DNA from: Leptospirales bacterium
GTDB taxonomy: Bacteria > Spirochaetota > Leptospiria > Leptospirales > Leptonemataceae
Length of the DNA stretch: 31,465 nt
Direction of reading: 5' to 3'
NCBI GenBank assembly: GCA_050305335.1
Contig: JBNLFC010000001.1
Span: 1-31,465 of the forward strand
Shown here: positions 933 through 18,949 of the stretch, one piece after another
How positions within the stretch are numbered: the first letter of the stretch is position 1
Layout: the number at the start of each line of letters is the position of its first letter
Translations under genes and position numbers: made by a program
The notes under the pieces: model-generated
Database searches by the model: none
Told to the model about the DNA's origin: nothing
What the model saw: the letters and a program-made list of their open reading frames with translations, nothing else

Positions 933-1157
933 ATGAAAATCCGGAGCACACAGCAGGCGGAGCAGCAATATCAGGAGATCATTGACTATTATGTCTCCTA
1001 CATCCAGCGGGCGGCCCGGGAGGCCGGCGGGATAGGGGCACTATCAGAGGCGCTTGGCAGGGAAAAATCTTATGCTCGGAAAATGATCTCGCGGCGGGCT
1101 ATAATTCCGCTGCGAGAGATAGTGCAGAAATTGGAGCGAGACAGGGGGATGGTGTGA
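933..1157 (+). CDS. small protein (74 aa), possibly an HTH-like DNA-binding protein
   Basis: First gene after the divergent promoter; segment GIGALSEALGREKSYARKMISRR is helix-turn-helix-like; stop overlaps the GTG start of the next gene. Confidence 0.35.
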   Translation: MKIRSTQQAEQQYQEIIDYYVSYIQRAAREAGGIGALSEALGREKSYARKMISRRAIIPLREIVQKLERDRGMV

Positions 1158-1669
1158 GTAAAAAGCCAAAAATAGAATATCTTCCTATCTCCAGTTTAAG
1201 ATCGTTCAAAAGAAATCCTCAGTATATGACAGAGCGGCAAATGACCGCTTTATCTAACTCGATAAAAAAAGATGGATTCGTTTCCCCAGCTCTTGTAAGA
1301 CCAATAAAAAATAACGAGTATGAGATAATTTCAGGTCATCATAGGATCATGGCAGCGCATAGAGCCGGATTAAAGGAAGTGCTGTGCGTAATTGCCTCTC
1401 TCACAGATAATCAGGCGAAGAGGCTGGTGGTCAATCTCAATACTATCCATGGCGAGCCAACCGCTGATCAATTGGCTCCTTTTCTCCTGGATGTGAAAGA
1501 TATTTCTGGCATTTTTCTTTCGGATGATCTTGAAAAGGCGGTTGGGGATATTGAAAACACAATCGCAAAACATATAAAAGAAATGAAAGTAAAAATTAAC
1601 AAACCGAGTAAGCAGGTTCCTAATTGCAAGTGCCCAATATGCGGACAAAAACATATCAAAAAAAAATAG
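1154..1669 (+). CDS. ParB N-terminal (ParB/Srx-like nuclease) domain protein with a C-terminal CxC...CxxC zinc ribbon
   Basis: Motif YEIISGHHRIMAAHRAGL matches the ParB box (yeIIaGerRwrAA..aGl); GTG start with AGGGGGA SD; C-terminal CKCPICGQKH. Confidence 0.75.
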   Translation: MSKKPKIEYLPISSLRSFKRNPQYMTERQMTALSNSIKKDGFVSPALVRPIKNNEYEIISGHHRIMAAHRAGLKEVLCVIASLTDNQAKRLVVNLNTIHGEPTADQLAPFLLDVKDISGIFLSDDLEKAVGDIENTIAKHIKEMKVKINKPSKQVPNCKCPICGQKHIKKK

Positions 1670-2109
1670 AACAATTGAGTGCAAACGATTACTCAATTGC
1701 AAAGGATGTTTTTAACAAAGGCAAGCATCCGGGATTTATTGGAAAGGGCATGCATGAAACAGCCTCCCGTAATGGCGGGGCATTTGCTGTGGTAATTGAT
1801 AAAAAAATAGCAGCCGTCGCCCTGGTAAATATGAGAAAAAATATTCTGACGGCTATCAATGTATTGCCTGAATATAGAAAGTCGGGAATCGGTCAAATGT
1901 TGATGAACTATATATCACCCAATTTCTGTCGAGTAATTGAGCCAGTAATCCCTTGGTTCGAAAAAATGGGATATGTAGTTTCAAGTGATTTTGTGGAAGG
2001 AAATAAATATCGCGTGGTAATTATGAGCATGAAAAATCTTGTCAACCTATCCAGAAAACATAAAATAACATGGGAAGGAGGGACAAAAATTGAAGACCAT
2101 CAGCATTAG
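1639..2109 (+). CDS. GNAT family N-acetyltransferase (frame open from 1624; true start unclear; possible -1 fusion to ParB through the A9 tract at 1658-1666)
   Basis: GNAT motif A YRKSGIGQMLM and typical beta-strand pattern; no convincing SD for an independent start. Confidence 0.65.
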   Translation: MRTKTYQKKIEQLSANDYSIAKDVFNKGKHPGFIGKGMHETASRNGGAFAVVIDKKIAAVALVNMRKNILTAINVLPEYRKSGIGQMLMNYISPNFCRVIEPVIPWFEKMGYVVSSDFVEGNKYRVVIMSMKNLVNLSRKHKITWEGGTKIEDHQH

Positions 2110-2428
2110 ACAGCCCTGGGCATGGGCAATTGTTTCCGGGCATAAACCAATAGAAAATAGAAATTGGGATACAAAATATAGAGGATTGATTCAAATTCAC
2201 GCATCAAAAAAAGATGACCCAGCGGGATATGAATTTCTGTCCAGAATGGGAATTGAGTGCCCGGAGAATCTACCCAGAGGCGGAATTATAGGAAAGGTGG
2301 AAATAGTCGATACAGTCAGAGAATCATCCAGTCCATGGTTTTTTGGAAAAATAGGATTTGTATTGATAAATGCGGTAATGGAAAATTTTAGGCCAGTTCG
2401 CGGCCAGCTTGGTATTTTTGAGGCTTGA
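2090..2428 (+). CDS. ASCH domain protein
   Basis: N-terminal IRQPWAWAI...GHKPIENRNW matches the ASCH GxKxxExR signature; TTG start with GGAGGG SD. Confidence 0.6.
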   Translation: MKTISIRQPWAWAIVSGHKPIENRNWDTKYRGLIQIHASKKDDPAGYEFLSRMGIECPENLPRGGIIGKVEIVDTVRESSSPWFFGKIGFVLINAVMENFRPVRGQLGIFEA

Positions 2429-2850
2429 AAATGGTAAAAAAAAAGGGAAACAGTGACAAAAACACAGACAAAAGACTTTTGAATCTCATTCCTTTTCAGC
2501 CAGGTCAATGCGGAAATCCGAAGGGCCGACCTCGCTTATCCGATGAGGAGAAAAAAGCGAGGCAGCAAGCTCGGCACGAGGTGGTTCGCTACCAGAAATA
2601 CAAAACCATGAGTCTGGATCAGCTCAAAAATTTAGACACAAAAATGCTGCCTGCCGTGGATGTTATTATCATCCGAAAAATTATAGATGACATCAAAAAC
2701 AGTGACACAACTGAATTACATCGGATGTGGTCCAGACAGTTAGGGGCACCTAAAACAGATGGGGAGAATCCGAAAATCGATCTATCAAACAGCAAGGTCG
2801 TTATCAGAATAGCCACAGGACAGACACAGGATAGTGAGGATGGAGGTTGA
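2425..2850 (+). CDS. putative terminase small subunit
   Basis: Basic protein with a GNPKGRP motif common in phage small-terminase/DUF5681 proteins; lies directly upstream of and overlaps the large terminase. Confidence 0.5.
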   Translation: MKMVKKKGNSDKNTDKRLLNLIPFQPGQCGNPKGRPRLSDEEKKARQQARHEVVRYQKYKTMSLDQLKNLDTKMLPAVDVIIIRKIIDDIKNSDTTELHRMWSRQLGAPKTDGENPKIDLSNSKVVIRIATGQTQDSEDGG

Positions 2851-4117
2851 ATTAGATGTTGAGCTCCTTCCGAAACAGGCTGAGTACGTAAACAGCATCT
2901 CGGATATAGCAATCTACCATGGAGGGGTTGGCTCGGGGAAAAGCATTGCTGATGTAGTGCTTGCAATCAAAACCGCAATCGAATGGCCGGGGATTGATAT
3001 TCTGGTAGGAGCTCCTACCTACGGTATGTTGCGGGACACGATCATGCGGGAATTCTCTGAGCGCTGCCCCTCCATCCTCCTGGAAAAATTCACGACAGGG
3101 ATCTACCCGGAAGCGGTATTCATCCCAAATCGCGGACAGCGATCTACAATTCGATTTCGATCATACGACAAACCTGGCAAACCTAAGGGACTGACAATCG
3201 GAATGGCGATACTGGATGAGATTACCGAGATCGAGGAGGATGTCCTGAACGAAATTTTGCGTCGCGTCCGCCAGGCTGGAATGCCGAACTACATCCGGTT
3301 TTCCACAAACCCGGATTCGAAAATGCACTATGTGTACAAGCGCTTCATCGAGCCGGCAGAGATGGGGACCATTCCGATCAATCGATTGCATTCTATCCAC
3401 ACCACCACCTATGACAATTTCCTTCTGCCGGAAAACTACATCAGGCAGATTGAGCAACTCAAGATCACGAACCCGGCAGAATACATGCGAGCCGTCCTCG
3501 GGCTCTGGGGCGATTTCGACGAAAACTCAATCGGAGCATTCGAGATAGTGCCGGCGTTCTCCTCTCCGTATCTCGTCGCCTTTCTCGATACATCATTCTC
3601 TGATTCCACCGTGTCTGATCGTACCGCACTCTCAATTGTCGGTTTCGTCCCGCAATTCGGGCTGGAAAACAAATACTGGCCCATTGAATTCACAGGGAAA
3701 AGCTGGCAGAAGAGCATAACCAACATCGAAGTTATTGTAGACATGCTCAATTTTCTGCACAGGTTCACACCGATCGAAGTCCAGGTAGAGTCTCAACTCG
3801 GGGATTCCACGCAAACATTCATTGACAATTTTCGGAACATGGAACGACAATTGAATCTGAGCCCGAAGAATCATTGGACCGTCCTCCACCAAACGAAAAA
3901 TAAACATGAGCGTATCATGCTGGAGGTGGCGGGGAATAAACCGAGAATGAAAGTTCTTGAGGATACGCCAGCGGATTATCTGAACCCAATTGTGGCCTAC
4001 ACAAAAAAGGCAGAGCATGATGATGAGGCGGATTCACTGGCAGGTGCGATAGAGTTGTGGCGAACCAGTAAGAACTTGCGAGACTATATATTGATGGCGG
4101 AAAGGGGGAAACGATAG
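2834..4117 (+). CDS. terL: terminase large subunit (PBSX/Terminase_6-like)
   Basis: Walker A GGVGSGKS, Walker B ILDEITEI, conserved FSTNPDS coupling motif and a C-terminal RNaseH-like nuclease region; SD GGAGG. Confidence 0.9.
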   Translation: MRMEVELDVELLPKQAEYVNSISDIAIYHGGVGSGKSIADVVLAIKTAIEWPGIDILVGAPTYGMLRDTIMREFSERCPSILLEKFTTGIYPEAVFIPNRGQRSTIRFRSYDKPGKPKGLTIGMAILDEITEIEEDVLNEILRRVRQAGMPNYIRFSTNPDSKMHYVYKRFIEPAEMGTIPINRLHSIHTTTYDNFLLPENYIRQIEQLKITNPAEYMRAVLGLWGDFDENSIGAFEIVPAFSSPYLVAFLDTSFSDSTVSDRTALSIVGFVPQFGLENKYWPIEFTGKSWQKSITNIEVIVDMLNFLHRFTPIEVQVESQLGDSTQTFIDNFRNMERQLNLSPKNHWTVLHQTKNKHERIMLEVAGNKPRMKVLEDTPADYLNPIVAYTKKAEHDDEADSLAGAIELWRTSKNLRDYILMAERGKR

Positions 4118-4287: not shown

Positions 4288-4462
4288 AGAAAAACTTATT
4301 GAATTACTTACTTCATTCGGAATAAAATTTGAAGATGAGGGATCTCATGTTAAAATCAGTGCCGATGGCGAATGTGAAAAGATAGATGGATATTTTTATT
4401 TTTATACTATATTTGAATTTAGCGAAGAGGGAAATTTTGTCCAGATAGGAATATGGGAATGA
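4277..4462 (+). CDS. hypothetical protein (61 aa)
   Basis: ORF with ATG; overlaps the next gene start. Confidence 0.35.
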   Translation: MSDKEKLIELLTSFGIKFEDEGSHVKISADGECEKIDGYFYFYTIFEFSEEGNFVQIGIWE

Positions 4463-4899
4463 AATCTCTACGCTTCGGAGTTCATCCGATCAAATCGCGC
4501 CGAAAAAATAAAAACGGACAGACATCTAAAACAGATCCTCCAGATCTGGGAGAAGTGGCTATCTGGAACGAATACGGTACCGCTACCATCCCGCCTCGCC
4601 CGGCATTCAGGATGGGACTTGAGGCAGCAGTTAAAAAGCACAAAAAACTACTCGACGCGCAGCTCAAAAACATTGCACAACTGGTATTGACAGGCAGACA
4701 TATAGATATAGATCGTAACCTGACAGTGTTATTGACACAGATAGGAAGATCTGCTAAAAAAGAAACTCAGGACATTATTCGCGCGGGATCAACTACTCCG
4801 AATGCGCCATCAACTATTGCGCGGAAAGGGTTTGACCACCCGCTTTATGAGGAGGGAGTATTGCTGGAAAATGTTGACTATGAGGTGATAGACGAATGA
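4453..4899 (+). CDS. HK97 gp10-like protein
   Basis: Motif YGTATIPPRPAFRMGLE resembles the HK97-gp10 family signature GT..IPARPF. Confidence 0.45.
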   Translation: MGMKSLRFGVHPIKSRRKNKNGQTSKTDPPDLGEVAIWNEYGTATIPPRPAFRMGLEAAVKKHKKLLDAQLKNIAQLVLTGRHIDIDRNLTVLLTQIGRSAKKETQDIIRAGSTTPNAPSTIARKGFDHPLYEEGVLLENVDYEVIDE

Positions 4900-5105
4900 A
4901 AAGTTGTAATTGTCATCTGCCATATAGCAATCCAGAGGCATGCAAATATTGCCCAAATGGATTGCTGACACATCCAGATCCGGTTTTTTTTGTTTCAAAA
5001 CTTCCCATAAAAAGAATAACAGAACGCTATTATCCAGATGGAAAGTTGAAAGAAAGAATTACTGAAATCATTGAAGAAGATGAATATAAGGTAAAACAAA
5101 CATGA
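4896..5105 (+). CDS. small Cys-rich (zinc-ribbon-like) protein
   Basis: CNCH...CKYCPNG arrangement; translationally coupled (ATGA overlaps) on both sides. Confidence 0.4.
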   Translation: MKSCNCHLPYSNPEACKYCPNGLLTHPDPVFFVSKLPIKRITERYYPDGKLKERITEIIEEDEYKVKQT

Positions 5106-7138
5106 GTACAGAATATAATCTTCACCAGCTATTATCCGCAATCCAGGTGCTCAAAGATCTTCCGGTCATGAAGCTGGCCGAAAACAAAACCCTTGTGAGA
5201 GAGATTCAATCTGTAATTTCCGGGCGGAACATCAATGGAATAATTGAATCAATGCAGCGAGATTACAGGTTGGAGCAGGACGCGGCCTTCAACACGCCAA
5301 AAAATTCATCATCCATAGGCATGGATTCTCCTGAGTTCCACCATCTCTATGCAAAATACCGGGGAGCTGCTCACAATGTGCTATCAGAGAAAGCGGGTAA
5401 ATCATTCACGCAACCGATCTCTATGTCCGGGGCAGTGGCATTTAATGCTCTTTCCGAAAACCCTATGTTCTCGAAATCTATTCTGGAATTACCAGAGGCG
5501 AAACGATTTAAGGAAGCGTTCAATTCCATCTACTCAGATCATGCTCTCCAGATCCGCACCGCCAACGATCCGACAACCATTTCGTCATTCATCGATTACA
5601 GCCCGTACATCTGGAATTACATCTATTATCTATCCATTCCAACCCTGGCACAGACAATTGATCTCTCTATTCAGATCGCAACCAGGCAACCACCACGGAT
5701 AGAGATGGAGGATAAAGAGCTCAAAAAGCAAATCGAAACCGTCCTGAAAAGAACCCGGTTTACCGAGAAGCTCCAGAAAATGCTTTTATACTCTCATCTT
5801 TCGCCGCGCGGCTCTCTCATCGTTCCGATTCAGGATGATGACGGAACCATCCGATTCAACATATTCAACGACACTCAGTTCACATATGCCACATCCTATC
5901 AGTACAGCCGGATTGATTTCCGGGAAAACATGACCGGCGTTTCCTCTCTTTACGTTCTCGGGCACCTGCTACAGAACGAGGTCACCGCTCATTTTCTCTG
6001 CCCGGGATTCGAGCCGATTTATGCCATCGGGAAAAATCGATTGTACCAACTCAAAGACGCGGCGGAAGCTGTGAATATCTATCTCTATACCATCAAGGTC
6101 CTAGCAATCCGGGCCCAGGTAATGGTGCAGAGTTGGGGAGGAGAGGGGCAGAATGATACTCTTCTGAGGATGATGCAAAATCAGACCGATGACATCAATT
6201 CTAAACTCTCGCTGAATACTGCCGTCAAACTACCGCAGGATGCAAAGTTGGACATCCTGAATAGCAATTTCACTCCTGGATTCGCAGAGGTCAGCACAAT
6301 CGTAAAAGAATATCAGGGGATGCTTTCCGGAATCATGGCGGACTATTTCTATGGATCAGATACAGCCTATGCGGCGAATACGTTCAACATTCATGCGACT
6401 CACCAGAATATCCGATCACAGGTTCAGGAGGCGCAGGTCGAGCCCATCTACCGGTTCGTGATCAACAAATATCTGGAAATGGATTCGAGATTCGAGAAAT
6501 GGCGAAAATACCGGGATGAATTCGACATTTATTTCGAGTCTCTTTATGAGCCGACAGAGACCGAAAAGATAGAAAACGATGCGAAAAAAATCAACAACAT
6601 TGTGACTATGGCGGGATATCCGGAACTCCAGAGGATCTTCAAGGAATCTGACGTAATGAACGATGAATGGGAGTTTCCGGAGATAGAAAGGCCTTCTGCA
6701 TTCCCGGCAGCAGAGGAAGAGGAATCATCCGGGTCTGAGGCAAAAAACAGCACCTTTATACAGACAATTGATCCGAAAAAAATCATGCCACTACATGAGG
6801 TGCGATATGAGCCTAAACTCATGCGCCTGATGAAGCGGATGGAGGAATTCGGTTGGCAGGGAGACCCATTGATCGTTATTGACAGGGCGGCAAACATGAC
6901 TCAGGGAATCACCGGGACTCATCGGATTCAGGCGGCGCAGGCTGTGGGAATTGAAATGCCGGTGGTAAAAATTCCATCAACGGAGATCACAGAGAAATTG
7001 ACCACCGGGAAAGACGAACACAGATTGAAGATCATCGAAAGCCAGGAGTTTGCGGATTCGGTCGGACATGTTGAGCTGATTGATTTGTGCCGGAGGATCA
7101 TGCGGGCTGAAGTGAAAAAAAACGGGGATGGTTGGTGA
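5102..7138 (+). CDS. putative portal protein with a C-terminal ParB-like domain (aa ~562-678, nt ~6785-7135)
   Basis: Position immediately after the terminase genes and its size; C-terminal PLIVIDRAANMTQGITGTHRIQAAQAVGIEMPVVKI matches the ParB box; acidic linker EEEESSGSE precedes the domain. Confidence 0.55.
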   Translation: MSTEYNLHQLLSAIQVLKDLPVMKLAENKTLVREIQSVISGRNINGIIESMQRDYRLEQDAAFNTPKNSSSIGMDSPEFHHLYAKYRGAAHNVLSEKAGKSFTQPISMSGAVAFNALSENPMFSKSILELPEAKRFKEAFNSIYSDHALQIRTANDPTTISSFIDYSPYIWNYIYYLSIPTLAQTIDLSIQIATRQPPRIEMEDKELKKQIETVLKRTRFTEKLQKMLLYSHLSPRGSLIVPIQDDDGTIRFNIFNDTQFTYATSYQYSRIDFRENMTGVSSLYVLGHLLQNEVTAHFLCPGFEPIYAIGKNRLYQLKDAAEAVNIYLYTIKVLAIRAQVMVQSWGGEGQNDTLLRMMQNQTDDINSKLSLNTAVKLPQDAKLDILNSNFTPGFAEVSTIVKEYQGMLSGIMADYFYGSDTAYAANTFNIHATHQNIRSQVQEAQVEPIYRFVINKYLEMDSRFEKWRKYRDEFDIYFESLYEPTETEKIENDAKKINNIVTMAGYPELQRIFKESDVMNDEWEFPEIERPSAFPAAEEEESSGSEAKNSTFIQTIDPKKIMPLHEVRYEPKLMRLMKRMEEFGWQGDPLIVIDRAANMTQGITGTHRIQAAQAVGIEMPVVKIPSTEITEKLTTGKDEHRLKIIESQEFADSVGHVELIDLCRRIMRAEVKKNGDGW

Positions 7139-7842
7139 TAAATATTTTTAAACATTTATCGCCTGCCTATTCTCGCATATTGCGAGAGTTTGCAATCAAA
7201 GTCTGGTACGGAAGAGGGGACACGAGAGAGTTTTATGAGAGTGCGGCCCGATACAAGAAACGCTATGAAAATGAGCTCATGGCATTTTACAGGAAAAAGG
7301 GCTGGCCATTCCGCCCGGAGGAAATCAGAACACTCGCCGATGCATGGCTGGCAGATCAACTCACTGTTGCGGATCGGGTCAACTCAGTAGCGGCGGAAAA
7401 AAAAGATGGACTTTTAGTAGAACTTGATAAACTTGTCGAGGAGAAGCGCGGAGAAGTTCGCGATCTACTCTCAGGGGTAAAAAAACCAGAGGGCAGAGTA
7501 GTGAGTGTGGTTGCATTCTCGAATAATTTCGAGGCGAAGGCCATCCAGATGGGAGACGATGCCGCATTCGATCTGGCAACTGAGATCAACGATCATGTTG
7601 TGAAGGGGATGACGGACCGATACGACTGGAATACTCAAGAGGATTCGGCGGTAAGGGTAACGCATCGAATGTTGAATAAAAAAACTTTCTCTTACGATAA
7701 TCCGCCGACAACGATCGATCAATATGGACGGAGACACACGGGTAATTGTGGGACTGATTGGGGATGCAGATGTTTTGCGACCCCGTCATATCGAAAACCG
7801 CTTCTGAATTATGTGGCAGATGCGAGACGGAAAAGAGCATAG
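7132..7842 (+). CDS. putative head morphogenesis / minor head protein
   Basis: Synteny only (the gene after the portal, as in SPP1 gp7 / Mu F arrangements); C-terminal Cys cluster CGTDWGCRC. Confidence 0.3.
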   Translation: MVINIFKHLSPAYSRILREFAIKVWYGRGDTREFYESAARYKKRYENELMAFYRKKGWPFRPEEIRTLADAWLADQLTVADRVNSVAAEKKDGLLVELDKLVEEKRGEVRDLLSGVKKPEGRVVSVVAFSNNFEAKAIQMGDDAAFDLATEINDHVVKGMTDRYDWNTQEDSAVRVTHRMLNKKTFSYDNPPTTIDQYGRRHTGNCGTDWGCRCFATPSYRKPLLNYVADARRKRA

Positions 7843-9779: not shown

Positions 9780-11309
9780 ATGATCGGAATCAAACGAATC
9801 AATACAAACCCTGCGGAACAAACCGTATCAAATTTCATGGCCGCAACGAATGCCTATGCTGAACAGCTCAGACAGCGTGGAGAAAAGACCGAATTTGTAA
9901 CGGCTGCGAACGCGCGGGATGTGCACAAAAAGTTAATCAAAACCGCTGTGGCTCTGGCAAACCCCGGGCATGAAAAACACAATGCCGCATTTAATGCCCT
10001 ATCGGCAGAATTCGGACATCATCGCGAGGGGCTAGATCTCATGCATGATATCGGTGCCCGCTATCTCAGAGATAGCATGGTGCTGGCAGAAAGCGCAGTA
10101 AAGCGCGGGATGTCTGGTGAAGCAGCTCTGGATTTCGCATTCAACAGTCTCGCGGGTAATCCTGTTTTTGACCACTTCGGTAACCTGAACCTTCTGGCCG
10201 GGCAGCTCTATGAAGAGCAAACATTTGTTGAGGCGTTTCTCTCCTCTGGAGATGCGTTCGCAGTTCCTACCGAGGCGGGCGGAACGAATCTTGATAAAAG
10301 CAGATTCCGAGCACCGGTTGAACAGGTGACCGGTTCTGCGAAAATTCTTCAGGGAGATATCAACCCGAGATCTCATCTGATGGATGACAACAACAGAACT
10401 CAGATTTCTCTTTACAACGAATTCAAAGACGCGGTAACTCTCGACACAGTTTTCTCGATCACTCAGGCGCAGCGAGACCAGGCCCTGGGATATGAGAAGG
10501 CCGTGAGTCCTGCTCTTGCCGGGTTCATTCTTCAGAATAGATATTTTCAGTCCTCTCAGAAACAGGTAATGAAACTCGCCGAGCTGATGTTCGCCTTCGG
10601 TCTGGATGCGTCCGGTAGTTACACTCCGAACGTCGGTGGATCTTATGGCATTCTGTCCTCTGCAATTCAACTGGCCCTGGCAGATTGGAACACCGCTACA
10701 CCTGCTCCAGCAGGTTATTCGGATTGGAATTCCAATACCACAAAACTTATTCAGAAAATTCAGAACTACAACTACAAACCAACCAGCGTTTCCGCTGCTC
10801 TGGATCTGTCAGTTGACCCATCTCTGATGTACAAGGACATTGTTCGACTGATGTCTCTTGCCGCACAACAGAACGTAAATTTCACACCGAGAGAATGGGT
10901 GTTGTTCGTGCCCACCTCCTGGTATGCTCTGGCAATGCAATATCCCGGAACTCAATCCGGTGGAACAGGTCAGGGAACGTTCAACAAACAATTGAACGAG
11001 ATGGTAACTACCGCAACGGAAGGAAAGATCGTTGGAAATATCCGGATTCTTCCCTCTTCTCTGCTCAACTATGGAGCGAGCAACGGAATCGGTGGAAGCA
11101 ATTCCTACAACTACATGCTGGCGGTCGCCATGGGGTGCGCGCAGGAAAACAAGCCTGTGATCATGCCAGGCCAGACCGCAATCCCGTATGTGGTAAGCGA
11201 AAACGTTTCCGCAACGATCATGAATTTCCGATCGCAGTACCTTTTCGGCGGCCCGATGTTCATGCATTACGGCGGTGCTTTTATGATGGAATTTTCGTTG
11301 GCTGCATAA
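9780..11309 (+). CDS. putative major capsid protein (509 aa)
   Basis: Largest ORF in the head module, strong SD AAAGGAG, position after the scaffold and before the neck genes; no motif-level confirmation possible by eye. Confidence 0.45.
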   Translation: MIGIKRINTNPAEQTVSNFMAATNAYAEQLRQRGEKTEFVTAANARDVHKKLIKTAVALANPGHEKHNAAFNALSAEFGHHREGLDLMHDIGARYLRDSMVLAESAVKRGMSGEAALDFAFNSLAGNPVFDHFGNLNLLAGQLYEEQTFVEAFLSSGDAFAVPTEAGGTNLDKSRFRAPVEQVTGSAKILQGDINPRSHLMDDNNRTQISLYNEFKDAVTLDTVFSITQAQRDQALGYEKAVSPALAGFILQNRYFQSSQKQVMKLAELMFAFGLDASGSYTPNVGGSYGILSSAIQLALADWNTATPAPAGYSDWNSNTTKLIQKIQNYNYKPTSVSAALDLSVDPSLMYKDIVRLMSLAAQQNVNFTPREWVLFVPTSWYALAMQYPGTQSGGTGQGTFNKQLNEMVTTATEGKIVGNIRILPSSLLNYGASNGIGGSNSYNYMLAVAMGCAQENKPVIMPGQTAIPYVVSENVSATIMNFRSQYLFGGPMFMHYGGAFMMEFSLAA

Positions 11310-11614
11310 TGGCTGATCCTTTAACATATCTCGCAGAGCTTAAAATGAGGCTTCAGAACCCTGCGGTCAGTGACTCCGATCTGACCGTATATCTGACAGC
11401 CGCTCTGCGAGAGGTTAAAGACGCTTACTACAGCTCAGATGATTTTGATGCCCAGGTTCTTGACACCGCCTGCCAGATGCTCGCAATAGATGGAAAATTC
11501 CCTGAGATAAACTCGGTTTCCTCCCAGGGAGTTACTACATCGTTTACGTCGAATGATCCGGAACGATATCGCAGGAGAATAGCAGCGCGCCGGCAGGCCG
11601 CATGGATGGGATAA
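11309..11614 (+). CDS. putative head-tail connector / head completion protein (101 aa, ATG at 11309 overlapping the capsid stop)
   Basis: taATG overlap; small gene after the capsid (synteny). The ORF-track call 10895-11614 is an upstream in-frame extension inside the capsid gene. Confidence 0.35.
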   Translation: MADPLTYLAELKMRLQNPAVSDSDLTVYLTAALREVKDAYYSSDDFDAQVLDTACQMLAIDGKFPEINSVSSQGVTTSFTSNDPERYRRRIAARRQAAWMG

Positions 11615-11615
11615 G

Positions 11616-11978
11616 ATGAGTTACATCACGAGAGATCTGGCATCTATGGCAATTGCCCGAAACGCTGGAGAGGAAGTGGTTTTCAAAATTAAAACTCAGG
11701 TTCCAGCCGGTGATGGATCATTCCAGGTTTACACGCGCGAATTAAAAAAAATGGCCCGGGTTGTGAATCTACAGCCGAATGAAATTCAGAGATTGCAGGA
11801 GAAAGGCGTTACACTGAACCAGGGAGTTTCCATTTCAATCGCAGACGAGTTTACCACGGCCCCGGATAAAATTACAAGGGCCGATGGCACGGTGATGAAG
11901 GTCGTGGACTACACCATAGCCGAAAACATTTCCGTTTTTATAGCAGACGTCCCGGCGATGGGGGCCGCGATTGTATGA
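11616..11978 (+). CDS. putative neck/head-tail joining protein
   Basis: Synteny; tight coupling to neighbours. Confidence 0.3.
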   Translation: MSYITRDLASMAIARNAGEEVVFKIKTQVPAGDGSFQVYTRELKKMARVVNLQPNEIQRLQEKGVTLNQGVSISIADEFTTAPDKITRADGTVMKVVDYTIAENISVFIADVPAMGAAIV

Positions 11979-12535
11979 GCGGGCTGACTCTTTTACAGCG
12001 CTATTACGCTATAAACCAGAAACTCAACGAGTATCTGGAGTCGAAAAATGTAAAATGCCCGATCATCAAGTATGGAATAGATGTAGCCATTCTCAAGACT
12101 CGTTTCCGGGACCAGAAAGAATTTACATATCCGTACATGCAGACGTACATCCGCCAGCTCACTCCGCATTACTGGACATCGGAAAATGCGGGGATTCTGA
12201 CAGAGTTTGAATACCAACTTTCGTTTTTCACAAGTCCTGATGATGAGTTTATCAATGATACATTGCATTTCGTCCCGTTTGAAGCGGCGAAAAATGCTCT
12301 TTCAGATATCACAGTTGGTTTGCTGGAAACGGTCGACGACGATGGGAAAGAGACAACTATAGCAGATCTTTTATCAATGCAGATTCACTATGAATTCGAA
12401 ATGAGAACTGGATCGCCGGTTCCGGCGGCTTTTCTGATTGCAAAATTCAGAGCGGTGTGCGGATATGCACTGGATGTCCCGGATGCAACTCTCGCAACAG
12501 ATATTGACGACGCGGTAACATATACGCAGGATTAA
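11975..12535 (+). CDS. putative neck/tail completion protein
   Basis: Synteny; ATGA overlap with the upstream gene. Confidence 0.3.
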   Translation: MSGLTLLQRYYAINQKLNEYLESKNVKCPIIKYGIDVAILKTRFRDQKEFTYPYMQTYIRQLTPHYWTSENAGILTEFEYQLSFFTSPDDEFINDTLHFVPFEAAKNALSDITVGLLETVDDDGKETTIADLLSMQIHYEFEMRTGSPVPAAFLIAKFRAVCGYALDVPDATLATDIDDAVTYTQD

Positions 12536-12538
12536 CCA

Positions 12539-13732
12539 ATGGCTCAAGCAGAATTTATTAAAATACAGAGTCTCGCAACAACAGGGACACTTGCTTCTCT
12601 CACCAGATCGGTGATGATTGTTACACGTGAAACAGTGAGTGGTTACTCTGCGGACTCAGAAACCGGATTGTACAAAATAAACGACAGCGATTACGACGCT
12701 TTCGTTGCGGCAAATCCGACTCAATATGGACTCATAAATGCTCTTCGTGTAACATTCGCTCAGGTTTACGCCTACAGCTATGTGTACATTCTCTCATCTC
12801 CTACTGGCGTAACCAGTACGGAGCTTTCTAACGCAAACAAAAATCCGCGTGACTGGTCGTTCATCACGATCGCCGATCGGTACAATGGAGATGGAACAGG
12901 TGGAGCGGGAAGCACTGACTATTTTGCGGACCTTGCGACCATCCAGACATGGGGCCCGCGCACATACAAAAAAATCGTGGTGCATACCTATTCAGTCGAG
13001 GAAAGCGGCGGAGTAATTACACTCCCCACAGAACTTCAGCTCGGTGGAGATATCGGATCGGACGGCGGGTTTAAAACAATCGTTTCTAACTCGCAAAGTC
13101 AGGTTGCTACGGTGGGAGGATCTCCGGTTTACGCTTACGACAATATTGCCCTTGCTCTTCTCTCGTTTGTAATCAACGGTCCGGCTCTGGCGAGGTCATG
13201 GGGATCTCTCTCAGATGCGCATGATTTTTTGGGGGTCTATGCGGATGACTACAGCACTACCTCCCGTTCTACGATAGAAAACGCATCTCTTGCGCAATAT
13301 AATGGCGCGAAGGACCGGGCCGGTTCATTGTTTGTTTATGACACTCAGATGAATGATGATGTAAACCCGGCATTGACTGATCAGATTGAAGCTCTTACAT
13401 CCGGGGACTATATTGAAGACTACGTTTATGTCTATGTGCATAACGCCCTTCAGGCAGCCGGTCAGACCGGAGTTACAAACGATGATGCCGGTATACAGAA
13501 AGTGCTGGGATTGGTACGTCGGGCACTCACTGACTGTTTTGATCTCGGTCTTATTCTATCGCAGGAGAACGGGGCTCCTGATTTCAGCGTAGGTGCCCTC
13601 ACGGCTGCGCAGGTTACTCAATTATCTTCTAACTGGAAGGTCACTGGAATCTGGCCGTCAGGTACGATCTACGCCTCTATTCAGAGATTCAGTGCAGACC
13701 ACTATCTGATAATCAATTTCACATTCTCTTAA
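12539..13732 (+). CDS. putative tail sheath protein (397 aa)
   Basis: Size and position match a P2 FI-like sheath followed by a ~160-aa tube, a frameshifting chaperone and a tape measure. Confidence 0.4.
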   Translation: MAQAEFIKIQSLATTGTLASLTRSVMIVTRETVSGYSADSETGLYKINDSDYDAFVAANPTQYGLINALRVTFAQVYAYSYVYILSSPTGVTSTELSNANKNPRDWSFITIADRYNGDGTGGAGSTDYFADLATIQTWGPRTYKKIVVHTYSVEESGGVITLPTELQLGGDIGSDGGFKTIVSNSQSQVATVGGSPVYAYDNIALALLSFVINGPALARSWGSLSDAHDFLGVYADDYSTTSRSTIENASLAQYNGAKDRAGSLFVYDTQMNDDVNPALTDQIEALTSGDYIEDYVYVYVHNALQAAGQTGVTNDDAGIQKVLGLVRRALTDCFDLGLILSQENGAPDFSVGALTAAQVTQLSSNWKVTGIWPSGTIYASIQRFSADHYLIINFTFS

Positions 13733-13740
13733 GGAGTTAA

Positions 13741-14214
13741 ATGATGTCTACATCAATGAACTTTGCAACCATAATCATGACGTTGACTCCTCATGATACT
13801 AACTATTCGCCATTGGTATTGAAATCAGATACTCTGTTCAATGAGGAAGAATTCCTAGGAGAACCTCAGCCGGACAAGGACCGTACGAGATGGTTTGCGT
13901 CTAATGATGGAGTTACCGGTCAGTATCTCGATATTTTTGCTATTGCAGGGAAGAGAGATCTGACCATCATAGATGGAAGTTTTGCAGATCTATTGCAAAA
14001 CTATGCATATGCAAACCCGCAACCGATGTTTGATTTCGATTTCAGATATCAAAGAAATGATCAGGACAACTCACAAATCCGGACTCACTCTCACAAAGAT
14101 TGCAAATTCACAAATCATCCGGCCAGGGTAATGTCCAACGATATAGTAGTTACTAAATTCACTCTGCATTATGGAACGATTAAGATTCTGGATGTAGATG
14201 GAAATCCAGTATGA
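13741..14214 (+). CDS. putative tail tube protein (157 aa)
   Basis: Synteny with the sheath/chaperone/tape-measure arrangement; SD AAGGAG. Confidence 0.4.
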   Translation: MMSTSMNFATIIMTLTPHDTNYSPLVLKSDTLFNEEEFLGEPQPDKDRTRWFASNDGVTGQYLDIFAIAGKRDLTIIDGSFADLLQNYAYANPQPMFDFDFRYQRNDQDNSQIRTHSHKDCKFTNHPARVMSNDIVVTKFTLHYGTIKILDVDGNPV

Positions 14215-14693
14215 ATCTGATTCGAGTTTCTCGCGCCTCATTCCTGTCAAAAACTTTTGATGTGAATGAGGATGAGCTCATTGCTAAACTCACCGGAGAG
14301 GAACTGGAGGCCGCAATTGCAGAATTGCCCACCGAAGAAGAAAAAGAATTCATGAAAATTTTCCGCTCTTCTGCTCCTGAGCTGGAGAGAATGAAGAGAA
14401 AAATGAGCGTGTGCCTTGATGCTGAGGTTCTGGAGCTGGAGGAGGATAGAGTAGTCTATGAGTATGCCGGCAAGAAATTTGAAATCCTTTCTCCGAAGAA
14501 CGTTTTCAAAATTTCGCAAATGCTGGATAGAGGAATATCTGAGGCGTTTTCGGAAATGTGTGTTCAGGGTTGCGTTTCAGTCGATGGAAATCCGTTGACC
14601 GATGTGAAAAACAAATGTCCTATCGGGGTAGATGAATTTCAATTACTGGTGCTGATTACCAGGAAGTTTTTTTTTCAGATTTACTTGGCCTGA
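14211..14693 (+). CDS. tail assembly chaperone (short form)
   Basis: Acidic protein directly upstream of the tape measure; ends just after a T9 slippery run (14667-14675). Confidence 0.55.
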   Translation: MNLIRVSRASFLSKTFDVNEDELIAKLTGEELEAAIAELPTEEEKEFMKIFRSSAPELERMKRKMSVCLDAEVLELEEDRVVYEYAGKKFEILSPKNVFKISQMLDRGISEAFSEMCVQGCVSVDGNPLTDVKNKCPIGVDEFQLLVLITRKFFFQIYLA

Positions 14694-14851
14694 TTGATCA
14701 GTCTGGTCGAACCATCTCACCCGGTATAGATATCATCGATATGATTGCAATGCGAGTTATCTCGTTGACAGAGGCGAAAGAAATTGATTTAATTACTCTC
14801 AAGAAAATCTACTCCCGCTGGAATGAGTACAGAGGAAAAGGCCTTATATGA
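14211..14851 (+). CDS. tail assembly chaperone, -1 programmed-frameshift long form (slip at G TTT TTT TTC 14666-14676; extension open to TGA 14849-14851, overlapping the tape-measure ATG)
   Basis: The -1 frame is stop-free for 60 codons from the T-run (hand-translated) and terminates exactly at the next gene start, matching the conserved G/GT-type tail chaperone frameshift. Confidence 0.5.
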
Positions 14852-15990
14852 TACGCGAAGTTTTAGGACTCGGAATAAAAGGGCAAGACGTAGTCCTCTC
14901 GTCTTTGAAGAAAATCGAGAAAGAAAAAAAGAAATTCGCACAGCCTCAGAAAGTTTTAATGCAGGCTGGCCCAGGTGGGTATACTCCATCCTTTGCCGCA
15001 CAAAGGGCTGCTCAGATGGGAGGCCAACCCGCAGCAGCCGCGATCCAGGCAGCACAAAAAAACGCTCCTCAATCAGGACAGAATGAAACCGTCCAGAAAA
15101 TGGAACAGATCTATCGGAAAGAAAAATCCGATGATCGCAATAAAGAGCTCCGCCAGAAAATGACAAAATTCGCTCAGGGAACCGCTGGAGTGGCTGCGGG
15201 AGTAGGTACGTTGCAAACCGGGGCGGCAACTAAAGCAGTTCTGGAGGGAGTTGCATCCGCCTTTGGCCCCATCGGAATGGTTGTAGGAAAAATGGCAGGC
15301 ACTCTGGTGGATGCTGCGCAAACATTCAAGGACCAGGTAAAATCTTCAGCGAATATAGTAGCAGATACCGCAAGAGCACAAAACGTAGCTCACAACATAA
15401 TGGGTGCCGGCAACGAAAGGTTTTTGCGCAAACAACGAGTCGATATTGATGTTGCAAGCCAGAGAGCCCTTGTAGAGGGAATGGGGCAGAAATTCGGTGT
15501 AGTCGGCGAGCATCTACGCAAATCTGTTGAGCGACTTTATGGAGACATGAATAATCCTACCGATGTAACTCAGGCGGCATCTCTGGCGACAGGTAATTTT
15601 GCGGCACTGGGAACTGATAAAGGTTTTTTCATGCAAAAAATCGCTGATCAGGTAAACACTCTCCCACCCTCAGCGAAACAGGAGATCATGTCCCAGATGA
15701 TGGACATGATTCCCAAAGATGAAATGTTCAAACAGACTGACGCTGTAATTCGTGGAGTTACAACTACATTTGATAATCTGGAAAGAGAAAGAGCTCAGAT
15801 GATGCTGGGGGAAAAAGGAGTTAACGTTTCAAGTGCTATTCAGTTACAGCATACTATAAACACAATTGACTCCGCATTAAATAATGGAATGGGAAAATTG
15901 GTTTCAGCTCTTACCGTTGCTGCCAAAAAAATAAACGATCTCATGGGACCTCCTGCACCTGCAAATAATTATCGGAAGGCCACCCCATGA
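14848..15990 (+). CDS. putative tail tape measure protein (380 aa)
   Basis: Ala/Gly/Gln-rich helical and hydrophobic segments; position after the frameshifting chaperone; SD AGAGGAAAAGG. Confidence 0.5.
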   Translation: MIREVLGLGIKGQDVVLSSLKKIEKEKKKFAQPQKVLMQAGPGGYTPSFAAQRAAQMGGQPAAAAIQAAQKNAPQSGQNETVQKMEQIYRKEKSDDRNKELRQKMTKFAQGTAGVAAGVGTLQTGAATKAVLEGVASAFGPIGMVVGKMAGTLVDAAQTFKDQVKSSANIVADTARAQNVAHNIMGAGNERFLRKQRVDIDVASQRALVEGMGQKFGVVGEHLRKSVERLYGDMNNPTDVTQAASLATGNFAALGTDKGFFMQKIADQVNTLPPSAKQEIMSQMMDMIPKDEMFKQTDAVIRGVTTTFDNLERERAQMMLGEKGVNVSSAIQLQHTINTIDSALNNGMGKLVSALTVAAKKINDLMGPPAPANNYRKATP

Positions 15991-16670
15991 CATCGTTCTC
16001 ATTCGATCCTCAAAACCTGTTGGGTGGAATGACTCAGGGAGTTACAAATCTTCCTATTATCATCGGTCTTCCGAGCCGGCAGAATCCTGTACCAAATTTC
16101 ATCATGGGGATAACCACCACTGAAAGAGCAAGGACATCCAGCACATTGCCAGGAATGCAACTTACCGCAGGTGACCTGTTTTTAAAAAGCGCGCGAAATG
16201 GAAGTGAGTTTACGTTTCGCGTTATAGTTTCCGAGACTCCGAATATAAAAAAAGAGGTTGTTGAGACAGTCTCAAAAGCCATCCAACAGCTATCTACTAT
16301 CGCCTCTTCCTTTGCAAATTTCGGAGGAGTTTTTCCAAACACATCAGGAATTACATCGAATTTCGTATCCTCGCAATTGTCCGCATTGAGCTCAATGAAA
16401 GACGGATTTCAACCAATCATGGCTCTAAATATGTTCATGCCTCTCAGTGCATTTTCAATTCAAAATCCATATCTCACGAGCTCCTGGTACATAGATCATG
16501 TAGAACATGCGAAAGAGGAGGCAGAGCGCGGGGTAGTGGTTGATGTAACTCTCAGAGAATTACTGATGAAGCGCGATCCTTCGTTTACATTGTTGACGAA
16601 AGTGGCGGCAAATCTCGCGAATCAACTGGTTGGACCAGGTGTTGGTTCATCTATAGGGAGTCTATTGTAA
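15987..16670 (+). CDS. putative tail/baseplate assembly protein
   Basis: Synteny (between the tape measure and baseplate hub). Confidence 0.3.
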   Translation: MTSFSFDPQNLLGGMTQGVTNLPIIIGLPSRQNPVPNFIMGITTTERARTSSTLPGMQLTAGDLFLKSARNGSEFTFRVIVSETPNIKKEVVETVSKAIQQLSTIASSFANFGGVFPNTSGITSNFVSSQLSALSSMKDGFQPIMALNMFMPLSAFSIQNPYLTSSWYIDHVEHAKEEAERGVVVDVTLRELLMKRDPSFTLLTKVAANLANQLVGPGVGSSIGSLL

Positions 16671-16990
16671 TGTCGTATTTCACTTCGATAGATGATGCAA
16701 TCGTCTCCTCTACGCTGGAGTTTACAGAGATCTCAGAAAGCTCTATGCAACAATTCACCTGTAAGGGCGGGGAAATTGCCGGGTTTCAAATTCGCAATCT
16801 GTATGTGATGGGATCGAATTTTCAGGTTTCTCAAATCTATGATTGCACAACAGGGAAACCAGTATTGCAGGGCACCGTTTCTGTTGTGCCTGGGATTGAT
16901 CTCACGGGAGGATATTTTTCAAGCGGCTGTTTCGCGGACGGTGATCCGACTGCGGAAGGCACAAAATTTTATCAGGTCGACTATGTATGA
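16670..16990 (+). CDS. hypothetical baseplate-module protein
   Basis: Synteny; overlapping start/stop codons with neighbours. Confidence 0.3.
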   Translation: MSYFTSIDDAIVSSTLEFTEISESSMQQFTCKGGEIAGFQIRNLYVMGSNFQVSQIYDCTTGKPVLQGTVSVVPGIDLTGGYFSSGCFADGDPTAEGTKFYQVDYV

Positions 16991-18141
16991 TTATAATCTA
17001 CAAACCTGGAAATGGAGATACGGTTGATCCGATAGTGATAATTGATTACACTCGATCGGATGAGCAATATTCCGAAGCTCAAATAATGCGTTACGTTTCC
17101 TCTCTCGGTGTTCAGGCTGCTAAAGGAAAAGGAATCAACACCGCGAATCTGAAGATTTATTCTCTCGACTATGCCTGCTCATTCACTCACTCCGGGATAA
17201 ACTACGGTGATGCGATAAAGACAAAATTCCAGGCTACCATCGAAAACGCTCCCATGTCCCTGGTAGGAGCGTTGAACATAAAACAATATATCAGCGAAGA
17301 GAATATAAATTCTCTATCGAATGCGAGCCGATCCATTATTGACCCGGAAGTTTTTTTCCCTACCGGCGCGATGGTGATAAAGACAAACAGCAATAGCACA
17401 GACACAATAACCCGAACATTCATGCTGTATTCTACTCCGTTCAATTTCGATTCGCGAAGATTGAATAGTTCCCTGATCCTTCAGGGGGCGGACTATGACT
17501 CAATGGTGATTCGTCTTCAATTCGCGGTGAGTCTGAAAAAAAATACTCCTCTGGTTTCGCAGTTGAGCACGATCCTGAGTGGTCAGGGTTACACAGTAAA
17601 CTCTGACGATTCTTTGACGAGCACTTTCCCGGTAGTGGAAAGATACTATCCGCCAGCTCCGATCAATGCTGTCATCAGTGAGGTTTGCCGGGACAACAAT
17701 CTTGCATATCGCATAAATTCGGATGAAAAAACGATCTACATAAAATCGCTATCCCCTTCAGACAAACCTGACCGATACGGGAATGGAATGTGCTTCAATG
17801 GATATGTGACCGGCGCAAAGATCATGTCCAGTTTTTCGCTACAGAATTACGCTTCCTGTACATTTGAGGCTGAAGCATTCGATGCCGAATTATTTGAGAG
17901 CCTGACTGTTTACGATGACTCAATGACCGAAGGGCAATTTGCAAACCTGCGCCAGATGCCAGGGGTATACATGGCCGGCAGTGTTCCTGTAAAAAAATAT
18001 CGATTCTATGTGCTTGAATATACCTACACCGATAATCGCTATAAAACGAGCGTGACGATTAGAGGAACAAACAACTGGTTGATCAACAATTTCAAGCTGG
18101 ATTCATTTCTGGAAAACAAAATTTACACGGGGGGAGTATGA
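16987..18141 (+). CDS. putative baseplate hub protein (P2 gpD / Mu gp44-like position)
   Basis: Synteny (precedes the spike/V-like gene). Confidence 0.35.
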   Translation: MIIIYKPGNGDTVDPIVIIDYTRSDEQYSEAQIMRYVSSLGVQAAKGKGINTANLKIYSLDYACSFTHSGINYGDAIKTKFQATIENAPMSLVGALNIKQYISEENINSLSNASRSIIDPEVFFPTGAMVIKTNSNSTDTITRTFMLYSTPFNFDSRRLNSSLILQGADYDSMVIRLQFAVSLKKNTPLVSQLSTILSGQGYTVNSDDSLTSTFPVVERYYPPAPINAVISEVCRDNNLAYRINSDEKTIYIKSLSPSDKPDRYGNGMCFNGYVTGAKIMSSFSLQNYASCTFEAEAFDAELFESLTVYDDSMTEGQFANLRQMPGVYMAGSVPVKKYRFYVLEYTYTDNRYKTSVTIRGTNNWLINNFKLDSFLENKIYTGGV

Positions 18142-18671
18142 CCGATGCTTTTATCGCAGAGGTGGTAAGCGCCGGAACCGAGGCAAATACATGGACAGTT
18201 ACGCCTCAGATTACCGAGCACGATGGAACTCTTCACCCTGATATCACGGTTGGTGTAGTGGAGGGGATAACCCCTCATGCCGGGGAAAAGGTTCTTATTT
18301 TGACGACTCGAAACAACCTGGACAATTCCGCGATTCATCGCTATTATGAAGCATCGGAGGCTTGCGGTAGAATCGTGGCCGTGGTCCAAACCTCGACAGA
18401 ATTTGAGTTGACGGGCGATTTTAAATTTGTCGGTGATATGACTGTAGACGGAAATCTACATGTGACCGGTGATCTGACCGTGGACGGAAACGCAACAATC
18501 AGCGGGGATGCTGATTTTGATGGAGCTGATAAAACTGTAACATGTAGTAATGATCTACAGGTCGATGGAGATCTTACGGTAAATGGAACTTTTATGAACG
18601 GGTCTGTTAATATGACGACTCATACTCACTCAACATCTTCTCCAGGAGCACCTACAGGACCACCACAATGA
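18138..18671 (+). CDS. baseplate spike (gpV-like) protein
   Basis: C-terminal beta-helix-like repeats TGDFKFVGDMTVDGNLHVTGDLTVDGNATISGDADFDG... typical of phage spike proteins. Confidence 0.5.
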   Translation: MTDAFIAEVVSAGTEANTWTVTPQITEHDGTLHPDITVGVVEGITPHAGEKVLILTTRNNLDNSAIHRYYEASEACGRIVAVVQTSTEFELTGDFKFVGDMTVDGNLHVTGDLTVDGNATISGDADFDGADKTVTCSNDLQVDGDLTVNGTFMNGSVNMTTHTHSTSSPGAPTGPPQ

Positions 18672-18949
18672 TAATGCTGGACGATGACGGAAATTTTGCG
18701 GTTGATTCATCAAACCATCTAAAGTCGGCTACGAATCCGGCCGGTCAGAATTTCAAATCAGAGGTGAGGTGCATTCAGGGTACATGGACTCCCGATGAAA
18801 CATTTGGTAGAAATGCCTTGATCTGGACTCTATCTCAATCGGTGCAGGATAGATGCTCTGATCTGACTCGCATCGGAAATAAGTACATGACAGTAGAATC
18901 GGTTTCGTATAATAGTACAACTAAACAATATTCCATACAGGCGAAATGA
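18668..18949 (+). CDS. small baseplate protein (gpW/gp25-like position)
   Basis: Synteny V-W-J-I. Confidence 0.35.
   Translation: MIMLDDDGNFAVDSSNHLKSATNPAGQNFKSEVRCIQGTWTPDETFGRNALIWTLSQSVQDRCSDLTRIGNKYMTVESVSYNSTTKQYSIQAK

Follow-up and report, generated by a model that had tools for sequence, protein, structure and literature searches.

What does a ParB-like domain do at the C-terminal end of a phage portal protein, and does it act together with a separate ParB-like gene encoded upstream? These questions are raised by a 31,465-nucleotide stretch of DNA from a Leptospirales bacterium (assembly GCA_050305335.1, contig JBNLFC010000001.1, positions 1 to 31,465; hereafter the window), in which the gene at 5102-7138 encodes a portal protein with a ParB-like tail. 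The original prediction, made from the sequence alone, was that this tail and the free-standing ParB-like gene at 1154-1669 form a pair with a role in packaging-site recognition or DNA-end processing. We conclude with high confidence that the product of 5102-7138 is a real, clade-specific fusion, in which a complete gene of the ParB/sulfiredoxin (Srx) fold has been placed on the portal C terminus. The fusion gene and its parts, all on the forward strand, are as follows.

5102..7138, forward strand: portal-ParB/Srx fusion gene, 678 residues plus stop (single open reading frame (ORF); same protein on contig L001; five full-length orthologous clusters)
5102..6646, forward strand: portal core, residues 1-515 (phrog_146, PF06381, AlphaFold2 (AF2) model and Foldseek matches to solved portals)
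6647..6751, forward strand: disordered acidic linker, residues 516-550 (...EWEFPEIERPSAFPAAEEEESSGSEAKNS) (low predicted local distance difference test (pLDDT) score, variable sequence)
6752..7135, forward strand: ParB/Srx-fold module, residues 551-678 (AF2, Foldseek, and family profile against ParB in the PDB)

The portal gene encodes a fused ParB/Srx-fold module

The reading frame at 5102-7138 contains neither a stop codon nor a frameshift, and an independent Logan assembly (L001) encodes a protein identical to the 678-residue fusion. Five further full-length fusion clusters from other samples share its architecture at 64-69% identity. The portal core matches phrog_146 (E 8e-13) and Pfam Phage_portal_3 (PF06381; E 6e-7, 28.8 bits, under the 33.8-bit cut-off), and Foldseek relates the full-length AF2 model to the solved portals of T1, Pam3, E217, HFTV1, T4, lambda, SPP1, and T7 (E 5e-7 to 2.5e-4). 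Both the fold and the slot of the gene, between terminase and head-morphogenesis genes, are those of a portal. A megablast search with the portal gene against 50,697 phage records returned no matches.

In the full-length AF2 model, the portal core ends in two crown-like helices (residues 486-504 and 508-515) and is followed by a disordered linker, with pLDDT below 50 at residues 532-548, and by a separately folded module at residues 553-675. The tail had been predicted to follow an acidic linker, which agrees with the disordered acidic residues 516-550. Its predicted length of about 117 residues was an underestimate: a C-terminal ParB-like module is indeed present, and it spans about 128 residues (nt 6752-7135).

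Relatives and structure place the module in the ParB/Srx superfamily

The module is made up of a core of about 80 residues, past which there are only about 50 residues of helices, ending in ...NGDGW. The stretch PLIVIDRAANMTQGITGTHRIQAAQAVGIEMPVVKI corresponds to portal residues 589-624 (nt 6866-6973). Taken singly, the window tail has no match in Pfam and only a weak one to phrog_498, in the N-terminal portion that resembles ParB (E 0.0095), and a profile built from six module sequences gave noise-level matches to PDB sequences. Pfam ParB_N (PF02195) is nevertheless matched by five of the six orthologous tails of the fusion clade and, individually, by 51 of 68 members of the wider family (best E 2.1e-8). 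The Pfam comparison suggested with the original prediction thus came out positive for the free-standing protein and for these orthologs, and negative for the window tail by itself.

Searching the PDB with the 68-sequence family profile retrieved Myxococcus ParB (E 1e-7) and SbnI (E 1.6e-5), along with Spo0J, Noc, and sulfiredoxin. The AF2 model of the module has a pLDDT of 90.6 and a predicted template modeling score of 0.84; its Foldseek matches are structures of ParB, Noc, KorB, and the CTPase PadC (E 2.5e-5 to 1e-3), including 7bnk, 6sdk, and 7nfu (E 2.5e-5 to 1e-4). The core superposes on sulfiredoxin 6ky4 with a root-mean-square deviation of 2.7 Å over 86 residues, and on the N-domains of SbnI/serine kinases with 2.2 Å over 75 residues. 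Therefore, the case for ParB, weak for the window tail as a single sequence, becomes solid once relatives and structure are added: the module has the alpha+beta fold, the profile match, and a GxxR motif with an invariant Arg that mark the ParB/Srx superfamily.

The module carries a conserved, putative nucleotide-binding site

Conservation was counted over the alignment of the 68 family sequences, which are about 30% identical; adding 548 to the module numbering gives the portal residue. Three motifs stand out.

6788..6805, forward strand: PLHEVR motif, residues 563-568 (His in 67/68, Glu in 50/68)
6851..6868, forward strand: GWQGDP motif, residues 584-589 (G 68/68, W 67/68, G 67/68, P 66/68)
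6911..6937, forward strand: putative phosphate-binding P-motif T-G-T-H-R plus IQAA, residues 604-612 (G and R 68/68, H 67/68)

All 68 members carry G36, G57, R60, A63, and Ser or Thr at position 58, and H17, M32, W37, G39, T56, H59, and A64 are each found in 67. Conservation is also high at P41 (66 of 68), at position 122 as Glu or Asp (66), and at P15 (63) and P72 (62), and lower at E18 (50). In HMMER alignments, TG[ST]HR lies over GERR of ParB and DGVHR of SbnI, so that G57 and R60 align with the Gly and the second Arg of GERR, and PLHE lies over DLHE of SbnI. The canonical G-E-R-R box II is therefore not kept, as His replaces the first Arg in 67 of 68 sequences. The prediction that both GERR arginines are replaced held for the first, which is a His, and failed for the second, which is invariant. 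In the region of box III (ENLQR) there is no conserved E-N...R, and HMMER aligns this region with low confidence only. About 30 residues past the P-motif is an acidic DD[DE][DE]R cluster, whose first two Asp residues are present in 40-45 of the 68 members. Pfam scans of the orthologs and the 68 family members detected no helix-turn-helix (HTH) family, and the family is strongly acidic (median pI 4.45, median net charge -13).

These features argue against the proposal that the portal domain is a CTP clamp or DNA binder: since it has no HTH, no clearly conserved box III, a GxHR P-motif, and acidic relatives, the module does not look like a DNA-clamping ParB. It shares its fold with the ParB/Noc/KorB CTPase clamps, which are among its top Foldseek and profile matches, but it differs from them in the His at the first GERR Arg, in the lack of a clearly conserved box III, of an HTH, and of a C-terminal dimerization domain, and in the acidity of the family. 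The best local superpositions (2.2-2.7 Å) are with sulfiredoxin and the SbnI/SerK kinases, which also share the GxHR motif. The module has Thr or Ser in place of the Srx catalytic Cys and Thr in place of the Asp that precedes Gly in SbnI, and substrates are unrelated. The 'LHE' of SbnI aligns with that of the module; this putative link of the His-Glu motif to SbnI/SerK comes from the HMMER alignment alone.

A closer parallel in the P-motif is ToxB, a ParB-fold ATPase toxin of contact-dependent inhibition that binds ATP and not CTP, and whose G105-N-H-R108 is structurally equivalent to G101-E-R-R104 of ParB (bioRxiv 10.64898/2026.05.05.722872). Like the module, ToxB is a stand-alone ParB-CTPase fold without a DNA-binding domain, located C-terminally on a delivery protein; it differs in its delivery by a bacterial type V secretion system and in having a cognate immunity protein, and the likeness is one of fold and P-motif. 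No immunity-like gene was identified adjoining the portal fusion. Because of the near-invariant GxHR and His-Glu motifs, and by analogy with ToxB, Srx, and SbnI, all of which use ATP, we favor, with moderate confidence, a nucleotide-binding or phosphotransfer site in the module. By the same analogy, the predicted nucleotide is probably ATP.

Origin of the fusion

The tail is carried by six clusters among 113 portal homologs, which come from different samples, are 675-702 residues long, and are 64-69% identical. About 100 other homologs stop at 520-585 residues, just past the acidic stretch, so that short-form portals terminate at the position of the linker, whose sequence differs among the six orthologs. 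The six long forms make up a single clade in the portal-core tree, where the short forms P0007 and P0008 are their nearest outgroups, which indicates a single acquisition. Among the six orthologs, 55 of 130 tail columns are invariant and every family-invariant residue is kept; the tail is therefore under purifying selection.

Three short-form relatives (L004, L006, and L007) have no module on their portal and no copy of it in the stretches examined, which cover 6-22 kb of 17-42 kb contigs. Nor was a stand-alone module found between portal and Mu-F in these relatives, so an origin by fusion of adjacent genes could not be shown. The portal/Mu-F junction of the short forms is occupied by variable small ORFs, four of them forward in L004 (11655-13084) and three on the reverse strand in L006 (2509-3714), where no Mu-F gene was called. 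The portal 3' end thus looks like a hot spot for accessory genes, and we view the module as an accessory gain at this variable spot in one clade. Under this model, a complete small phage gene of a distinct ParB/Srx clade would have been fused in frame to the portal 3' end in a single event, before the few phages of this clade diverged.

Relatives of the module and their partners

An exhaustive profile search recovered 694 relatives with E-values of 1e-3 or lower; for 96 of these the E-value was 1e-10 or lower. They are almost all metagenomic, and partners were surveyed in the best 150 of the 694 representative matches. A tblastn search of the module and one solo relative against the 50,697 phage records matched Virus Rctr197k only. 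In BFVD, the top full-module match is the first ~1000 residues of a larger protein; it is probably the Virus Rctr197k protein and the sole such match there. The family shares the signature PLHE...GW.G.P...TG[ST]HR..AA. Solo proteins account for 100 of the best 150 matches; they are 97-180 residues long, with about 120 as the usual length, and contain the whole module, sometimes including a terminal '...N..GW'. The other architectures found are listed below.

P0129, 754 aa: fusion to a Portal_Mu-type portal, module at 621-750
P0144, 683 aa: fusion to a canonical Phage_portal_3 portal, module at 565-683
P0120: fusion to a Phage_portal_3 fragment, module at the extreme C terminus
P0133, P0134, P0154, P0186: Mu-F fusions, module N-terminal, internal, or C-terminal
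P0145: fusion to a DUF2213 head protein, module at 159-280
P0187 and one more: ART-PolyVal partner
P0176 and one more: LPD3 partner
P0147: cell-wall hydrolase partner
P0183, P0197, and one more: HAD/PNKP partner
P0164, P0123, P0218, and the Virus Rctr197k protein (2039 aa): large virion-type proteins of 969-2039 aa

The module stands at the extreme C terminus in all three of the other portal fusions (P0129, P0144, and P0120). Just upstream of it, the conserved motif (R/H)W(V/E)TI(N/H)G(A/Q)HV(L/F)I(D/G)..G occurs in three proteins of different types, at residues ~530-560 of P0144 (an unrelated portal), ~290-320 of P0186 (Mu-F), and ~340-380 of P0164 (969 aa). This motif may represent a small domain of its own; alternatively, it may serve in processing or docking and accompany the module.

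Six genomic contexts of solo modules were inspected. A terminase operon is flanked by the module in three of them (divergently in L009 and L011, and directly upstream of the small terminase subunit gene in L014); in L010 the module lies upstream of capsid genes, and in L012 and L013 among early or replication genes. L009 also has a ParA/CbiA-like ATPase gene (6174-6848) 2.8 kb downstream of the solo module, the sole hint of ParA in the six contexts; in the window, no ParA-like family was matched among a subset of about 20 ORFs that were scanned. The solo module of L013 (Myxococcus sp. CA040A, JABUMR010000022.1; 6001-6408, 8528-10213) is found among small phage-like genes on a bacterial genome contig, near a protein with a Cas_Csd1 domain and a KilA-N/ANT protein, and this region is probably a prophage or another mobile element.

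The free-standing ParB gene is independent of the fusion

Does the fused module work with the second ParB-like gene of the window?

1154..1669, forward strand: free-standing classical ParB_N protein, 171 aa (PF02195 E 2.8e-15; phrog_620 E 9.5e-26)

This gene was correctly recognized as ParB-like and as lying by the terminase genes, upstream of which it is located. With 56.6 bits against a ParB_N gathering cut-off of 26.3, a match to Spo0J at E 4.8e-12, and homologs in 168 deposited phage genomes, mostly annotated 'ParB-like nuclease domain', it is unambiguously an ordinary phage ParB_N protein. It is basic (pI 9.65), its P-motif is S-G-H-H-R, and the string quoted for it in the original prediction corresponds to residues 56-80 (nt 1319-1393). 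At residues ~158-167 it carries a C-terminal CKCPICGQKH, which may be one half of a zinc ribbon or knuckle.

The reported alignment of the tail with the box of the free-standing protein was reproduced by hhalign, which places TGTHRIQAA over SGHHRIMAA (E 2e-4, probability 46%). The family hidden Markov model (HMM) scores the free ParB at 31.7 bits and the six-sequence clade HMM at 12.2 bits. A recent duplication linking the two was considered and rejected, as they fall into separate ParB clades and hhalign gives a probability of only 46%; no second copy of the module's own clade was found in the window. The two genes also do not travel together: contig L002 has a long-form portal and no free ParB in 10 kb of upstream sequence, while in L007 the portal is of the short form and a ParB_N gene lies upstream of the terminase. 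Therefore, the free ParB and the fusion are independent, and the proposed pairing of the two copies is not supported.

The 2025 PNAS ParB survey describes frequent fusions of phage ParB to the PUA-like DUF3850. The free ParB of the window and its ASCH/PUA-like neighbor (2090-2428) may be a split version of this ParB-DUF3850 pairing.

Possible roles of the portal-borne module

In solved portals, the crown and C terminus face the capsid interior, and the terminase docks on the outside. Since the module is attached to the crown and portal topology is conserved, its location is likely to be the capsid interior. The flexible acidic linker, of about 35 residues, would tether it to the C-terminal crown helices, and a dodecameric portal would hold twelve modules within the head, surrounding the inner opening of the DNA channel. 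We propose that the module would be pre-loaded in the virion as an accessory enzyme and would be present when infection starts, either released by linker cleavage or acting on what passes the portal, with a role in host takeover or anti-defense and not in a core packaging step. This proposal is founded on the independent fusion of the module to two other portal families, to Mu-F and DUF2213 proteins, and to polyvalent-protein domains. Pre-loading for the start of infection is its least certain step, and we advance it tentatively, as a possibility that is more easily wrong than right. Taken as a whole, a capsid-internal accessory module with predicted nucleotide binding is the best explanation of the data, and we rate its chances as about even.

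Several points weigh against this explanation. The window tail by itself finds no match in Pfam, and its module, at pI 7.1, is neutral where the family is acidic. We know of no portal that is ejected, so an effector role would need either linker cleavage or activity from inside the head, and host delivery is speculative. Nor is it obvious what would supply nucleoside triphosphate (NTP) in a sealed capsid. The AF2 model is that of a monomer, and the placement of the module in the dodecamer lies beyond such a model. Finally, the solo genes that flank terminase genes in three of the six contexts fit a packaging-related role as well as an 'earliest gene' role; some packaging-related role thus stays alive, and very early expression from the genome end is equally compatible with them.

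In the model put forward in the original prediction, the portal ParB domain would act at the packaging channel, either as a nuclease or as a DNA clamp that depends on CTP, and would work with the terminase and the free ParB in pac-site recognition or DNA-end processing. In its favor are the terminase-flanking solo homologs, the free ParB upstream of the terminase genes, and reports of nickases and NTPases among members of the ParB superfamily (PMC5512222). We consider this model improbable. Attachment to the C-terminal crown puts the module on the capsid-interior side, away from the terminase. The closest sister portals lack the fusion, with no copy in the available stretches, so phages of this lineage can package DNA without it, and an essential packaging or end-processing role is not supported. 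The free ParB does not co-occur with the fusion, as L002 and L007 illustrate, and the P-motif is GxHR and not GERR, in a strongly acidic family without HTH or clearly conserved box III. The evidence does not support a new mechanism for recognizing the packaging site.

A role in structure or assembly is also unlikely, if a little less so. Here the ParB fold would serve as an NTP-dependent dimerization module, which could either join neighboring portal subunits and so cover the channel with a gate or plug, or dock Mu-F, scaffold, or cargo to the portal during procapsid assembly. NTP-bound N-domains of ParB, Noc, and KorB self-engage, and such structures are among the fold matches of the module; most of its identifiable partners (portal, Mu-F, and DUF2213) are expected at or near the portal vertex, and the long flexible linker would permit pairing. 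However, the window has no second copy of the module's clade for docking, most family members are solo, some of them in early-gene contexts, and the ART-PolyVal, HAD/PNKP, and cell-wall hydrolase partners look like effectors and not like assembly factors. As a long shot within this line of thought, the twelve modules could pair on nucleotide binding and so build a ring or plug, gated by nucleotide, that covers the portal channel at its inner mouth. That the fusion is an artefact or a remnant, through an assembly or frameshift error or neutral read-through into a neighboring gene, might be suspected, as only six clusters carry the tail and the window tail scores poorly in Pfam. It is effectively refuted by the architecture being present in six independent samples at 64-69% identity with all family-invariant residues kept, by the confident AF2 fold, and by the independent fusions in two other portal families; with an uninterrupted frame and six clusters of the same architecture, the idea of a separate gene product or frameshift, named beforehand as what would undo the original prediction, failed.

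Gene neighborhood of the fusion

The gene order around the fusion is large terminase subunit, three small ORFs and a Neck1-like gene, portal, Mu-F, and scaffold-like protein, with a 509-residue probable capsid protein downstream of the scaffold/protease-like gene in the head block. Genes for a GNAT and an ASCH protein are positioned between the free ParB and the terminase genes.

1624-2109, forward strand: GNAT acetyltransferase, 46-nt overlap with the 3' end of the free ParB gene
2090-2428, forward strand: ASCH/PUA-like protein (phrog_3193 E 1.3e-43)
2425..2850, forward strand: DUF5681 protein, probable small terminase subunit (PF18932 E 2.2e-7), directly upstream of and overlapping the large subunit gene
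2834..4117, forward strand: large terminase subunit (Terminase_3 E 2.4e-19; phrog_2 E 1.6e-33)
4453-4899, forward strand: Neck1/tail-completion-like gene (phrog_222 E 3e-28)
7132..7842, forward strand: Mu-F-like minor head protein (phrog_4529 E 5.9e-13; PF04233 E 1.5e-5), abutting the portal stop codon
7850..9190, forward strand: scaffold/protease-like head protein (phrog_2229 'head maturation protease' E 1.8e-6; weak DUF2213 match)
18946-20352: baseplate-wedge-like gene
24155-25144: tail-fiber gene
27008-29745, reverse strand: region at the right end of the window with a lipoprotein-like gene and a Sak4-like ATPase

The slot of the Neck1-like gene, between the large terminase and the portal, is unusual for a connector gene. 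The scaffold/protease-like protein is a possible candidate source of proteolytic processing. It contains a duplicated ADKKKEEEAAN motif, 61 residues apart (repeats at nt 8735 and 8918), and weakly matches DUF2213, a family of which one protein elsewhere (P0145) bears the ParB/Srx module. In 9780-22867 and across the window, most of the large structural ORFs, including the 509-residue probable capsid protein, had no PHROG match, and the window looks like a poorly sampled lineage of tailed phages. The lipoprotein-like gene matches phrog_200 (E 3e-79) and the Sak4-like ATPase phrog_1366 (E 4e-79); the strand switch at this region probably marks the start of an early or replication region.

Relation to known systems and implications

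Iyer et al. 2017 (PMC5512222) argue that polyvalent proteins, and effectors fused to MuF or portal, are carried in the phage head and delivered together with the DNA. The DdrB-like ParB proteins described in that study resemble the module in several respects: both are ParB/Srx-superfamily domains with a conserved active-site Arg, occur solo or fused in phages, by or within virion proteins, with predicted head packaging and no ParA partner, and share ART-PolyVal, LPD3, lysozyme-type hydrolase, and MuF as common partners. They differ in that the family profile aligns with P1 DdrB only at E 0.45 (hhalign, probability 0.1%), strand 2 does not consistently end in the Asp/Asn reported for the DdrB-like clade (position 46 is D in 18, E in 14, A in 8, and R in 7 of the 68 sequences), the module family has no invariant Tyr to match the conserved one in the extra helix of DdrB-like domains, and the module clade scores on classical ParB_N. 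No ddrB-type Pfam family was among the matches of 121 scanned proteins. Membership in the DdrB-like clade was rejected on the hhalign result and the lack of conservation of clade-specific residues.

The portal- and MuF-fused effectors (PBECR, 2H, InPase, the MuF polymorphic toxins, and Microbacterium MuF-VIP2) share with the present fusion a C-terminal enzymatic cargo and the logic of capsid loading; the difference lies in the ParB/Srx fold of the present cargo. The 2012 catalogue of polymorphic toxins (PMC3482391) does not include Tox-ParB among the toxins delivered by MuF, and a portal-ParB fusion is not mentioned in the text of Iyer et al. 2017. The terms portal, MuF, virion, and capsid are absent from the accessible part of the text and supplements of the 2025 PNAS survey of ParB-CTPase-fold fusions, and targeted literature searches found neither the module clade nor its recurrent portal fusion. 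Prior work thus covers effector fusions to portal or MuF, virion-associated polyvalent proteins that contain ParB/Srx domains, and delivered ATPase toxins of the ParB fold, and the module clade itself is apparently distinct and undescribed.

Should the unlikely nucleotide-gated ring or plug prove true, it could retain the DNA end that is packaged first or last, or set the moment of genome release, and would be a previously unknown ParB-type NTP switch in the packaging/ejection vertex of a virus. If instead the capsid-internal accessory module is the correct explanation, these results would define a sizeable ParB/Srx clade with a sharply conserved active-site signature, and its capture by three portal lineages and by Mu-F proteins would be strong comparative evidence for the benefit of an in-head enzyme. 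A natural folded domain that is tolerated on the portal C terminus would also be useful in engineering display inside the capsid. The module would then be a tractable candidate for a virion-delivered factor in anti-defense or host takeover, or for an as yet unknown function at the inner face of the portal.

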